From a virus (lineage: Duplodnaviria > Heunggongvirae > Uroviricota > Caudoviricetes), in IMG/VR virus record IMGVR_UViG_2663763286_000026: a DNA stretch of 4,367 nt. One strand, 5' to 3'. The translations under genes were made by a program, and so were the position numbers. Positions 1 to 4,367 of this stretch are shown piece by piece; within the stretch, counting starts at the first letter, position 1; each line of letters opens with the position of its first letter. The notes under the pieces are model-generated. The model did no database searches and was not told where the DNA came from. It was given only the letters and a program-made list of their open reading frames with translations.

Positions 1-1236
1 CTATGATAACCGCGCATTCAACATGGCTATCTGTTCGTCGTTCATGTCATCAATCCACATACCGTAAATTTCATACACCATCTGCGCAGTTTCATGCCCC
101 ATTTGGCTGGCTATAAATGCCGGGTTCGCTCCTGCCGTCAACAGCCAGCAGGCAAAAGTATGCCGCGTATGGTACGGATTACGGCGGCGAATACCAGCAC
201 GTTTTACTGCTGCATTCCACCTTGCCCCCAAACTGCTTACCGAGTAATAAGGTTTTTGTTTTCCGTTACACACCCTGGGCATGAAAACAAAATGCAGTTT
301 TTGCTTTTCGGTTCTGCCGTACTCCCGATGATAAAAGGTGATTTCGCTTTTGCGATGATGCCCGGTCAGTTTGTATTGCTCCTTCAGTGCTTCAAGAGCA
401 GGCTGCAGTAGTGTTACTGTCCGGATCCCGGCATTTGTTTTTGGGGGACCGAACATATCAAGTATCGTCAGGTTTCTTCTGACATTCACTATTCCCTTTT
501 CGAGATCCACATCCTCCCACGCCAGAGCTGCCAGTTCCCCGTGACGAAGTCCTGAGTAAACTGCAAATTTCCACATGTTCTGGCTCTGTCCTTTTTCACT
601 TTCCATTAATGCATTGAATTCTGTTTTAGATAACGGATCAGGCTTTATTCTGTTTCGCTGTAATTTTTTTACTCCTTCAAATGGTTTGGTTGATATAAAT
701 CCCGACTGATACGCAAAACGTAACAGCGAACAGAGCAGGGCGATATAGTTATCAACTGTGCGCACGGTTCTTCCTTTTTTGTTGGATCTTGGATTATCCA
801 GGTAAAGCGTTTCTCCATGCAGCAGTTCATTCCGGTAGTTTAAGATATCGCTATAACGAATATGTGATATCAGGGTACTTTCACAAATTATTATTCTGAG
901 TGTTTTTAATTGTGATTTCGTTTTCTTCATTGTGTTTGTTGTTAACTCTGTCTCTTTAATTTTTGTCCAGATATCACAAAGCTCTCCGAACGTTTTTATG
1001 ACTCTCGTTGTCACCATTTTTGCCCCAGTGCTGGACTGGGGAAAACGTCTTAAATACTCAAATTCACCGGAGTTTATTTCATGAACTATCAGCGCTCTTA
1101 AATTTCCGGCCTTTTTAATATTACTGTTTGTAATCTCCCAGCCTTTTAATGTTTCCCGACATCGTTTTCCTCGAAACATGAACCAGATGCGAATGTATCT
1201 ACCTCTAATCTCGACACCTGTTGGTAATTTAGACAT
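1..1236 (-). CDS. intR: Tyrosine site-specific recombinase (phage integrase), Rac prophage IntR-like, 411 aa
   Basis: Complete 411-codon ORF on minus strand (ATG = revcomp of 1234-1236, stop = revcomp of 1-3). C-terminal region carries tyrosine-recombinase hallmarks (H-T-R-H motif in ...NPYHTRHTFAC..., then ...QMGHETAQMVYEIYG... with the candidate catalytic Tyr). Lies immediately downstream of an excisionase-like gene (xis stop TGA, 1 nt, int ATG). Protein recognised from memory as Rac IntR; not verified by search. Confidence 0.9.
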   Translation of the reverse strand: MSKLPTGVEIRGRYIRIWFMFRGKRCRETLKGWEITNSNIKKAGNLRALIVHEINSGEFEYLRRFPQSSTGAKMVTTRVIKTFGELCDIWTKIKETELTTNTMKKTKSQLKTLRIIICESTLISHIRYSDILNYRNELLHGETLYLDNPRSNKKGRTVRTVDNYIALLCSLLRFAYQSGFISTKPFEGVKKLQRNRIKPDPLSKTEFNALMESEKGQSQNMWKFAVYSGLRHGELAALAWEDVDLEKGIVNVRRNLTILDMFGPPKTNAGIRTVTLLQPALEALKEQYKLTGHHRKSEITFYHREYGRTEKQKLHFVFMPRVCNGKQKPYYSVSSLGARWNAAVKRAGIRRRNPYHTRHTFACWLLTAGANPAFIASQMGHETAQMVYEIYGMWIDDMNDEQIAMLNARLS

Positions 1237-1237
1237 A

Positions 1238-1453
1238 TCATGAGTCTTTGATAAACTGATTTATCTTTGGATAGTTGTACCAGATAATCCCTCGTTTGCT
1301 GTCTGGCTTACCTAAAGGAGATACTCGTTTGAAGTGGAAGCCCTCCACCCAACAGTTCTGGCGGTATGCTTCAATTTGTCTGGCCCCCAGACCAGTGCGA
1401 AGCATCAGGCCGTATTCAACCATCCACTCTTCATTAAAGATTACTTGTGCCAT
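1238..1453 (-). CDS. xisR: Excisionase-like recombination directionality factor (YdaQ/XisR-like), 71 aa
   Basis: [19 protein letters not shown]...[11 protein letters not shown] at revcomp 1451-1453 is preceded by GAGGTGATGCG (SD-like AGAGGTG, about 6-nt spacer). The 79-aa form in the ORF track begins at a TTG without SD. Position directly upstream of and 1 nt from the integrase start is typical of xis-int pairs. Confidence 0.75.
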
Positions 1454-1504
1454 CGCATCACCTCTGGCAGGCGCCAATGTTAGACTGAAATTGACGCCCG
1501 ATGT

Positions 1505-1520
1505 TGATTATTAATAATCA
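1505..1520. promoter_or_regulatory. 16-bp perfect palindrome TGATTATTAATAATCA in the xis upstream intergenic region; candidate operator or promoter element
   Basis: Read directly: 1505-1520 is its own reverse complement. It sits 52-67 nt upstream of the xis ATG in the only sizeable intergenic gap of the operon (1454-1552). It contains AATAAT (-10-like) on both strands; a -35-like TTGACG at 1491-1496 lies 16 nt upstream on the plus strand. Confidence 0.35.
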
Positions 1521-1552
1521 GCTATGAAGTTTTAATTTGAATACAATGCAAT

Positions 1553-1741
1553 TCACGAGGACTGAAGTTTCTCGCAATTAAAATTTATCAGTTTTACTTT
1601 CTGCTCTCTGGAAACGCCTGCTTCTTTTTTACCTGAGAGCATTTTTTCGCATTCTGATTTCGTTAGTTTAGATTTTGAATATCTTGTCCAGTTAGTAGGA
1701 GTGCCACCTTCCTTTTCAATAGTGGCGGTAATTTTATACAT
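1553..1741 (-). CDS. ydaC: Small Rac-prophage protein, YdaC-like; 62 aa from the SD-supported ATG (longer 86-aa form possible)
   Basis: ORF ending at stop revcomp 1553-1555. ATG at revcomp 1739-1741 is preceded by AACGGAGGTGTTC (strong SD GGAGGTG, 5-nt spacer). This ATG overlaps the last codons of ralR (ATGTATAA), suggesting translational coupling. The upstream ATG at 1813 has no SD. Identity as ydaC is from memory of Rac gene order and sequence; start codon uncertain. Confidence 0.6.
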   Translation of the reverse strand: MYKITATIEKEGGTPTNWTRYSKSKLTKSECEKMLSGKKEAGVSREQKVKLINFNCEKLQSS

Positions 1742-1928
1742 GAACACCTCCGTTATTATTTCCAGTGGTTCGTTTATTCCATCTTTCGAGTGCTTCTTTT
1801 TCACTTCCACCATAACCGGTTCGGGATTCGCATCCGTTACACTTCGCTCGGTAATATCCTGAAATGACTTTCACCGTTACTGATGGACAACCACAAAATG
1901 GACATGGTTTAACATTGTCATATCTCAT
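1734..1928 (-). CDS. ralR: Restriction-alleviation protein Lar / RalR (also described as a type I toxin with DNase activity), 64 aa
   Basis: ORF MRYDNVKPCPFCGCPSVTVKVISGYYRAKCNGCESRTGYGGSEKEALERWNKRTTGNNNGGVHV, with Cys cluster C9/C12/C14 ... C30/C33 (zinc-ribbon-like). Recognised from memory as K-12 Lar/RalR. Start taken as the ATG at revcomp 1926-1928 (64 aa); the preceding sequence GAGAAAAATT is only a weak SD. Located between recT and ydaC as in Rac. Confidence 0.75.
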   Translation of the reverse strand: MRYDNVKPCPFCGCPSVTVKVISGYYRAKCNGCESRTGYGGSEKEALERWNKRTTGNNNGGVHV

Positions 1929-1956
1929 AATTTTTCTCATAAAAAATATTTCAAGT

Positions 1957-1977
1957 TGGCGGTGCATTACACCGCCA
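1957..1977 (-). other. Perfect 8-bp stem / 5-nt loop hairpin in the recT-ralR intergenic spacer
   Basis: 1957-1964 TGGCGGTG pairs with 1970-1977 CACCGCCA; loop CATTA. On the minus-strand transcript it lies 8 nt after the recT stop. A U6 run follows only about 10 nt after the stem, so it does not look like a canonical intrinsic terminator. Confidence 0.3.
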
Positions 1978-1984
1978 GGCTGAA

Positions 1985-2794
1985 TTATTCCTCTGAATTA
2001 TCGATTACACTGTATTCCCCGGTTAATACAGAGGAATCTGCAGGATCGATTGTCAGTGGTTCCTTTTCATCCATTGATACTGCACGCTGGATCTCAATTG
2101 ATACGGGCAGATATTTGAACAGGCGACGAATAGCCGTTTTCTTTGCCATTTCTTCCCAGTGAGTTACCCACGGCCCGTTATTACCAGCTTTACTCAGGCT
2201 GCGCACCAGCTCAATCTGTTTGCGCGTCATAACTTCAAACTGAGTACCTCCGTCTTTCAGTCTTGCGACAGCATAGACGTGGGTAACCGGGGCATCTTCG
2301 TTTTCTCCCGGGCGGTGTATTAACTTTTCATCAAGGCCAAATTCGAAGCTAAACTCGTCACCTTCACGGACAACACGGGCTGACAGGCTGGCGATTTGAC
2401 CAGAACGGCGAGCCAGATCAATCATGCCGCGATAGCCAATGATTAGCTGAACGTTCTTTTTACCGCTCTTTTCGTTTTTATTACCAAAAGGCAGTAAATA
2501 TGCATGACCGAGGGCGCTACCTGGCTCAAGTCCGAGCTGTGAACACTGTACGATCGCACTGACAAAACTCATAGTGTCACAGTTTCCTAACGCCGGAACT
2601 TTACGAATTTCTGTGGTGGCGATACGGATCATACGTTCAGCCGTCATATGGCGTGGAAGAGCTGCTGCCAGTTGCTCTTTCATTGATGGCTGGTTAATAA
2701 AACTAATCACGTCGCTATTTTTAACTGCTGCTGGTGCACGGTTTCCCTGAGTTTTTTGCAGATCGGCTTTTGCGATTGGTGGTTGCTTAGTCAT
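1985..2794 (-). CDS. recT: RecT single-strand annealing protein (recombinase), 269 aa
   Basis: [32 protein letters not shown]...VIDNSEE, recognised from memory as RecT. ATG at revcomp 2792-2794 is preceded by GCTAAGGAATATGCAA (SD AAGGA, about 7-nt spacer). The start overlaps the recE stop by 8 nt (ATGACTAA). The 288-aa form in the ORF track is an upstream in-frame extension without SD. Confidence 0.92.
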
Positions 2795-4240
2795 TTGCAT
2801 ATTCCTTAGCCCAGCGGGGCAGTGATAATGTCTTAATAGCTGGCCATTCATCGGTATTCAGGCAGTCAGACAGGGTTCGCAGATTGCGGTGATATTCCTG
2901 TTGACCTGCCAGTTTTGCTTCTTCGCCCATCATGAAAATTTCAACCGGATAACGTCCGCATTCAATAGTTGTGCTGGCAACCAGAAAAACGAAAGTTGGC
3001 TGCACTCCAAACTGTGCTTCATAACCGTCACTGTAGAATGCATCCTGAACGTGATAGCGGTAGTCGTAATAAGCGGTTTTGAATCGTTGAATATCCGCCG
3101 TAGTTTTCACGTCCATGATCCAGTGAAATTCAGGGATAATTTTGTCCGGACGGCACCGACACAAAATTCCTGTTTCAGGATCTTCCCAGTAAATTGATGA
3201 TTCAGCGTGTCCGGCGCTTTCAACAAGCCATTGCCCCAGCGGCAAAGCCATAACGCTTTGATACATGAGTTCAATTTTCCGGCCTTCTTCCGCAGTGATA
3301 ACTGTTTTTCCTGTGCTTGCGCATTCCATCAGAAACGCTTTCTCTTCTTCTTTTCCGGCGTTTGTACGGCGGTTAAATTCAGGTGCTACGATAAAGCGGT
3401 TACTGAATTCTTCCGGTTCAAGTACCCGGCAGTGGAAAGCGGTTCCTAAATCGAGCGTTTTTGTCTTTGTGGTGTCAACGGGGGCATTTTTACGCCACAA
3501 ATATAGTGCCGGAGTATCAGCAATGTCATCGAGCTGAGACTTACTGACACCGGGACCCGCGTGGTAATTCTCATTCGAAATTCCGTAATAAATACCTGGC
3601 TCTATGTCTTCTACGATTACGGGATCTGCGACTTCGCCAGTTTCATCACTGCAATCGCGATGCGGATCGCTGCCAGCATTCTCATTGTGCGGATGTTCAG
3701 CGCCTTCCATTTCCTCCGGATCATTTTCCTTAGCTTCAACCTGACTCTCTTCATCGAATGTTTCCTGGTATGTTGCGTCGCCCATCACCGCACCACAGTC
3801 AGGGCAGTTATCCCCGCCAGTCTGGCCGCAGGCATTGCAGGCTATTTCCGGTTCCTGTTGCACTACTGGCTCAGGTTGATTCATATCCGGGCTGGTTTTT
3901 TCCGTTTCTGGCTGGTTCTGGTACACACAATCGCGAGTCTGGATCCCCTTTACCCATTTCGGATCGTTCGGGTCGCTAATTCCGTCAACAAATTCACCAC
4001 GTGATGCAGCAAGCAATTTATCGGCATCGACAGGATCTTTTGATGGAATGTTTTTCCGGGCTTCATGGAGTTCTGCCCGCAGTTCCTGATATTTCGCATC
4101 AATAGAATTTACCTGTGACTGAGCATCCAGCGGCTGCGTGTCCTGATGATGTTCAGTTGCGTCCGGTTCCATTGTTTCAGCCTCTCCCTGTTCAACTGCC
4201 GTTGTTCCAGATGGTTGCGGTTTTTCTTCATCATCCTGTT
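2787..4240 (-). CDS. recE: recE (exodeoxyribonuclease VIII) 3' portion, about 484 codons, 5'-truncated by an IS insertion; gene fragment, possibly pseudogene
   Basis: Translation from ...[26 protein letters not shown]... to ...[13 protein letters not shown] matches RecE central and C-terminal regions from memory (full-length RecE is 866 aa). The 500-codon ORF in the track begins at an ATG (revcomp 4287-4289) that lies inside IS-derived sequence and has no SD, so the native 5' end is absent. Stop at revcomp 2787-2789. Confidence 0.8.
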
Positions 4241-4255
4241 TGAGGTAGCCTGAGT

Positions 4256-4284
4256 TTAACGGACACTCCTTCCTGAAATAGAAT
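4256..4284 (+). promoter_or_regulatory. Candidate inward-reading transposase promoter in the IS left end (-35 TTAACG 4256-4261, 17-nt spacer, -10 TAGAAT 4279-4284)
   Basis: Hexamers read directly from the sequence; position upstream of the orfA SD and ATG is consistent with IS3-family organisation. Not experimentally supported. Confidence 0.25.
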
Positions 4285-4304
4285 GGCATCAGAAGGAGCT
4301 AATA

Positions 4305-4367
4305 ATGAGCAGAAAAACCCAACGTTACTCTAAAGAGTTCAAAGCCGAAGCTGTCAGAACGGTTCTT
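4305..4367 (+). CDS. IS3-family transposase OrfA (helix-turn-helix N-terminus), first 21 codons only; truncated by the window edge
   Basis: ATG at 4305-4307 preceded by GAAGGAG with a 6-nt spacer. Translation MSRKTQRYSKEFKAEAVRTVL is open to the end of the window. It is absent from the ORF track only because it runs off the window. Confidence 0.65.
   Translation, partial: MSRKTQRYSKEFKAEAVRTVL

Follow-up and report, generated by a model that had tools for sequence, protein, structure and literature searches.

Probable simple insertion of IS600 into the Rac prophage gene recE at the end of an Escherichia coli draft contig

In the Rac prophage of Escherichia coli K-12 MG1655, recE is intact and encodes the 866 amino acids of exonuclease VIII, and the genes are arranged in the order intR-xisR-rcbA-ralR/RalA-recT-recE 3′. 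The recET pair (b1350/b1349) is reportedly activated by sbcA mutations and is silent in K-12 without them. IS600, a member of the IS3 family, was first described in Shigella sonnei. [quoted passage not shown] IS600 has also inserted into recE itself, in the bovine strains 95_0274 and 88_1577 (NZ_CP074785.1 and NZ_CP074804.1), at recE nt ca. 1192. There, the insertion proved to be simple and flanked by a 3-bp AAC duplication, and recE 5′, racC, ydaE, and kilR resume straight after the element. Here, we analyzed a stretch of 4,367 nt (the window, referred to as such below), which shares with the bovine strains the element, its orientation, and the target gene and with the O121:H19 case the disruption of a gene by IS600 placed opposite to it. 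It differs from the former in being a separate event, 44 bp away from theirs (which falls between window-equivalent positions 4196 and 4197), with flanking Rac sequence that is 99.2% identical, and from the latter in that excision of the element is not known for the recE allele.

A six-frame list of open reading frames (ORFs) gave a string of genes on the minus strand of the window, namely, an integrase (1 to 1236), an excisionase, a DUF1187/rcbA-like ORF, ralR, recT, and a long ORF, an order common to the window and to canonical Rac. The corresponding region of K-12 MG1655 (NC_000913.3, 1412000 to 1416240) aligned to positions 1 to 4241 at 99.58% and without gaps, and the identity over the part running from intR to recE (1 to 4240) was 99.6%, again with zero gaps. 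On this alignment, the window departs structurally from canonical Rac nowhere except at 4241, in agreement with an earlier note on this DNA, in which an IS at about that position had been singled out as the main structural departure. The gene recT (1985 to 2794, minus strand) was intact, with 269 aa; besides its colinearity with K-12 and its place in the ORF list, it was an exact match to RECT_ECOLI and was assigned to PF03837 in the gene calls of contigs identical to the window. Rac synteny was also evident from the 8-nt overlap of the recT start (2794) with the recE stop codon (2787), the same as in K-12, and from the genes intR-ttcA-dbpA-zntB that follow in the identical contigs.

Some features of this part of the window deserve mention in their own right. 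The antitoxin small RNA RalA was complete (1557 to 1735, plus strand; Rfam RF02694, 225 bits versus a gathering score of 170) and lies antisense to the rcbA/ralR region, so the RalR/RalA type I toxin-antitoxin pair of Rac appears to be intact. An in-frame ATG upstream makes the mechanically called ralR ORF (1734 to 1967) longer than its annotated counterpart in K-12, at 77 versus 64 aa. The 18 mismatches to K-12 were scattered across positions 1 to 4241, while strain 472 (NZ_CP018245.1) was 100% identical to the window over 2700 to 4241, with all of its 66 mismatches falling in 1 to 2699. Together, these patterns suggest that Rac alleles are recombination mosaics.

The minus-strand reading frame of recE had its stop codon at 2787 and was open as far as 4240, as the continuous RecE-like frame described in the earlier note implied. 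This 3′ part (2787 to 4240) is 1,454 nt long and begins with nt 1148 of the 2,601 nt of the gene, in phase 1 of codon 383, and ends with nt 2601, thus covering residues 383 to 866. Mapping of the breakpoint placed it between recE nt 1147 and 1148, which leaves 382 codons plus 1 nt missing from the window, where about 380 had been estimated. Homology to recE ended at 4241 both in K-12 and in numerous E. coli genomes with 100% identity over 2700 to 4241, and positions 4241 to 4300 are not native recE sequence in these relatives. Given that base 4241 (T) is compatible with both recE and the IS, the junction was set between 4240 and 4241. The C-terminal PD-(D/E)XK nuclease domain was wholly retained. 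Residues 17 to 500 of the 500-aa ORF corresponded to K-12 RecE 383 to 866 at 99.2%, the product of the 3′ part matched PF12684 (1.3e-28), and ORF residues 239 to 500 matched the structure PDB 3H4R, “Exodeoxyribonuclease 8” (8.5e-181). The N-terminal Exonuc_VIII region (PF06630) and the full length of 866 aa are absent, as the frame ends at the codon 383 junction. Judged from its sequence, recE in the window is a disrupted gene, split at codon 383, as opposed to the intact gene of MG1655.

The frame happens to continue by chance for 16 extra codons into the IS left end (4241 to 4289, minus strand), yielding a mechanical ORF of 500 aa (2787 to 4289) whose start ATG, at 4289, lies inside the IS and lacks an upstream ribosome-binding site. 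We rejected this hybrid as a real gene. Its exact product had no match in a gene-position index or in a collection of 15 billion proteins, and it is called nowhere; gene callers start instead at the internal ATG corresponding to RecE Met406 (4170 to 4172, minus strand), which is preceded by GGAGAGG. The orphaned C-terminal fragment called from this Met406 start, of 461 aa, was present in the 24 contigs examined.

The remainder of the window (4241 to 4367, plus strand) was identical in 127 of 127 positions to copies annotated as “IS3-like element IS600 family transposase,” a match far beyond chance. Thus, the IS3-family element proposed in the earlier note can be named as IS600, and each of the left-end hallmarks listed there has its counterpart in this element. 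The IS begins with TGAGGTAGCC, which contains the terminal TG (TGAGG) and starts the left inverted repeat; a ribosome-binding site, AAGGAG, is located at 4293 to 4298, and the ATG of orfA is at 4305 to 4307. The ORF starting there is indeed that of a transposase gene, since its 21 codons within the window (MSRKTQRYSKEFKAEAVRTVL) are identical to the N terminus of IS600 OrfA. This 21-aa stub scored 20.7 bits versus a PF01527 cutoff of 24.1. In a complete IS600 copy taken from strain 95_0274 (L002, 7498 to 8761), which is 1,264 bp long and the first 127 bases of which are those held by the window, the full OrfA matched PF01527 HTH_Tnp_1 (1.5e-20) and OrfB matched PF00665 rve (3.5e-26), with an A7G slippery site at nt 316 for the −1 frameshift between orfA and orfB. 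This full copy also showed the terminal TG..CA, the right end (…CACCTCA), and the imperfect inverted repeats, while the window shows the left end only; for this locus, the right end is represented by the 15 IS-encoded residues of the junction protein described below. From the nucleotide identity, terminus, left inverted repeat, ribosome-binding site, and OrfA N terminus to the inferred 3-bp duplication, no difference from IS600 was detected. An IS600 copy matching the 127-nt stretch was present in 3,004 of the 5,426 complete E. coli genomes, and only the insertion site, found in none of these 5,426, is unusual.

Exact look-up of the 461-aa fragment led to contigs of which two carried the identical recE/IS600 junction, JXWD01000041.1 (GCA_000948825.1) and JHMZ01000053.1 (GCA_000617785.1), the latter from the Shiga-toxin E. 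coli O177:NM strain 2010C-4558 (PMC4125765). The window was 100% identical to the terminal 4,367 bases of JXWD01000041.1 and to bases 96 to 4462 of JHMZ01000053.1, which reaches 222 nt into IS600 (222/222 identical). The window stops inside the IS because both draft contigs break within the multicopy IS600. One of its edges coincides exactly with the intR stop codon and the other with the physical end of JXWD01000041.1, meaning that a gene boundary sets one limit of the window and the contig end the other. The IS part of exactly 127 nt up to that end corresponds to the k-mer overhang that assemblers typically leave at a repeat. One of the NCBI names for the shared 461-aa fragment was “exodeoxyribonuclease 8 [Shigella sonnei].”

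Beyond the contig ends, the other side of the element was approached through the protein that a simple insertion should generate. We built the right-junction product from recE nt 1 to 1150 followed by the reverse complement of the IS600 right end, in four allelic versions. The predicted product consists of RecE 1 to 383 plus LRCTGNSGHYHLFFF (15 IS residues), with a stop 47 nt inside the IS, i.e., 398 aa. Exactly this protein exists in NCBI (EYY99549.1 and EGP6269716.1; three contigs, the longest of 7.4 kb), the matching version of the four being the one with the recE 5′ allele of strains 88_1577 and 95_0274, and it carries the N-terminal Exonuc_VIII domain (PF06630, 1.2e-98). The native sequence at the site reads CCTGTT/TTCC. 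The window keeps recE from nt 1148 onward, while the protein needs nt 1 to 1150, so that nt 1148 to 1150 (AAC, or GTT on the plus strand) occur on both sides, the right one being known as protein only. We infer from this that GTT at 4238 to 4240 is the left copy of a 3-bp target-site duplication, in line with the native sequence, the neighboring-site case, and the 3-nt target reported for IS600 (PMC9397093). The accession of the 461-aa C-terminal fragment, EYZ03787.1, is 4,238 numbers from EYY99549.1, a spacing compatible with one genome of ca. 5,000 genes in the same 2014 submission batch. Based on this proximity and on parsimony, we infer that both junctions occur in one genome with a complete IS600 between them. 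BLAST searches of 5,426 complete RefSeq E. coli genomes with a 90-nt left-junction query retrieved the junction in none, and a constructed 89-nt right-junction query likewise gave 0 of 5,426 complete E. coli genomes, its only full-coverage matches being the two neighboring-site strains, joined from two pieces. Among the GTDB species-representative genomes, no exact match to the left junction turned up (0 matches), and a repeat search around the junction yielded nothing meaningful.

With high confidence, therefore, given that the exact complementary junction protein exists, we consider this a simple insertion of IS600 in Rac recE at GTT, with a 3-bp duplication, that splits the gene in two and displaces recE 5′, racC, and the rest of Rac by 1,264 bp instead of causing their loss. 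A full-length IS600 (1,264 bp) would have transposed into recE at the target GTT (recE nt 1148 to 1150), the staggered cut leading to the duplication of 3 bp, and the right junction would read ...CCAGTACACCTCA-GTT-TTCCTTCTTCTGTTACTCG... into recE 5′ and racC. The transposase genes are oriented away from the recE 3′ part and recT. Two products are predicted, one with 383 RecE residues plus 15 codons of the IS right end (398 aa, with the Exonuc_VIII domain) and another comprising residues 383 to 866, which has the complete nuclease domain and has lost its own start codon. The 3′ fragment would now lie 1.26 kb farther from any upstream Rac promoter.

An IS600-mediated deletion or rearrangement, by which unrelated DNA would lie beyond the IS and recE 5′, racC, and upstream Rac would have been lost or moved, would fit the fact that neither the window nor the two contigs identical to it extend past the IS, so that the far side was not read directly. 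Rearrangements of this kind do occur where an IS interrupts recE. In another sequence (L006), unrelated genes, and not recE 5′, come after the IS1 that stands beside the recE 3′ part. However, an adjacent deletion would destroy the very junction between recE nt 1150 and the IS600 right end that is found exactly, as a fusion protein, in NCBI, with one of the 398-aa accessions close to that of the C-terminal fragment, and we regard such a deletion as quite unlikely. The earlier note had left displacement and deletion as alternatives under a title that spoke of the 5′ part being removed. Removal holds within the window; as to the genome, the junction protein favors displacement. The exact 127 nt at a contig end, matching a typical k-mer overlap at a repeat boundary, might also be read as a chimeric contig end arising from repeat collapse, with recE intact in the organism. 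The chance of such an artifact is practically negligible, however, as the same junction appears in two independent assemblies with different overhangs (127 versus 222 nt), the join falls at the exact first base of IS600, and a matching right junction with the 3-bp duplication exists (as protein), while chimeras would come without signatures of transposition.

Under a simple insertion, full-length exonuclease VIII would no longer be made. Expression of the recE fragment and recT would need antisense read-through of the IS and reinitiation, e.g., at Met406, and that of recT is probably reduced by polarity. The only promoter-like site detected in 3900 to 4367 was on the plus strand (4256 to 4284) and points into the IS. 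The minus strand showed two weak hairpins resembling terminators, no more than shuffled sequences give. Contrary to a loss, the allele might represent a gain of function of the sbcA type, in which a truncated active RecE (e.g., 406 to 866) would be expressed with RecT. In recombineering, C-terminal parts of RecE are functional together with RecT, and recE can be activated by Tn5 insertions that lie upstream of it, both of which would speak for this reading. Since the entire crystallized nuclease domain and a good internal start (GGAG-ATG at 4172) are intact, a truncated RecE/RecT pair could conceivably be activated in an sbcA-like manner, but no finding here supports it. The transposase promoter points away from the recE 3′ part and recT, no outward promoter-like site toward them was detected on the minus strand of either the IS part of the window or the whole IS600 copy, and the ATG at 4289 is devoid of a ribosome-binding site. 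We hold a gain of function to be very improbable. Similarly, the insertion is very unlikely to represent a selectable or reversible state of Rac, whether by IEE-aided excision restoring recE or by an expressed RecE(406-866)/RecT altering recombination. As to a simple insertion with loss of exonuclease VIII, its phenotypic cost is likely small, given that Rac recET is activated by sbcA mutations and otherwise silent.

In all, we are dealing with a commonplace pseudogene, created by an IS and lying where a draft contig ends. Annotated public genomes already contain the element, the target gene, the type of event, and the sister insertion 44 bp away, and both recE fragments are already listed by NCBI as “exodeoxyribonuclease 8”; only the insertion site is particular to this case. 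Its value is in annotation, with little importance beyond it. A 461- to 500-aa ORF annotated as “PD-(D/E)XK nuclease” would be recognized as a recE pseudogene fragment and the short transposase stub as an IS600 truncated where the contig ends. The rare junction could mark a lineage of O177:NM-related strains. Strains carrying it are probably impaired in RecET-dependent recombination of the Rac prophage with incoming lambdoid phages.

Other IS insertions were seen in the same part of recE. The 88_1577 site (L001, 7498 to ca. 9990) carries a tandem array of a truncated IS600 start, a complete IS600, and another member of the IS3 family. Several genomes and gut metagenome contigs (L004 to L008) have IS1 at recE nt ca. 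1051 to 1062, ca. 90 bp upstream of the IS600 site, and two additional sequences (L010 and L011) end ca. 12 nt beyond this IS1 point. The 5′ part of recE was found after IS1 in L004 and L005, while in L006 (9126 to 9823), unrelated genes replace it, which suggests an IS1-mediated rearrangement. Overall, three independent IS breaks (IS600 twice and IS1) fall between recE nt 1051 and 1194, ca. 140 nt just upstream of the nuclease domain, a clustering that might point to selection for loss of just the N-terminal half of RecE. The claim of an IS hot spot at nt 1051 to 1194 was rejected, as the searches themselves select for breaks upstream of Met406 or for IS600 beside the recE 3′ part.

Truncated RecE pieces of many lengths were present in the databases. 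The 398-aa protein belongs to a cluster of 168 members made up of truncated N-terminal pieces (337 to 434 aa), and the C-terminal ones include fragments of 387 (121 contigs), 521, 655, and 829 aa. Such a variety of truncations indicates that, in assemblies of E. coli and Shigella, recE is very frequently either broken or interrupted by the end of a contig.
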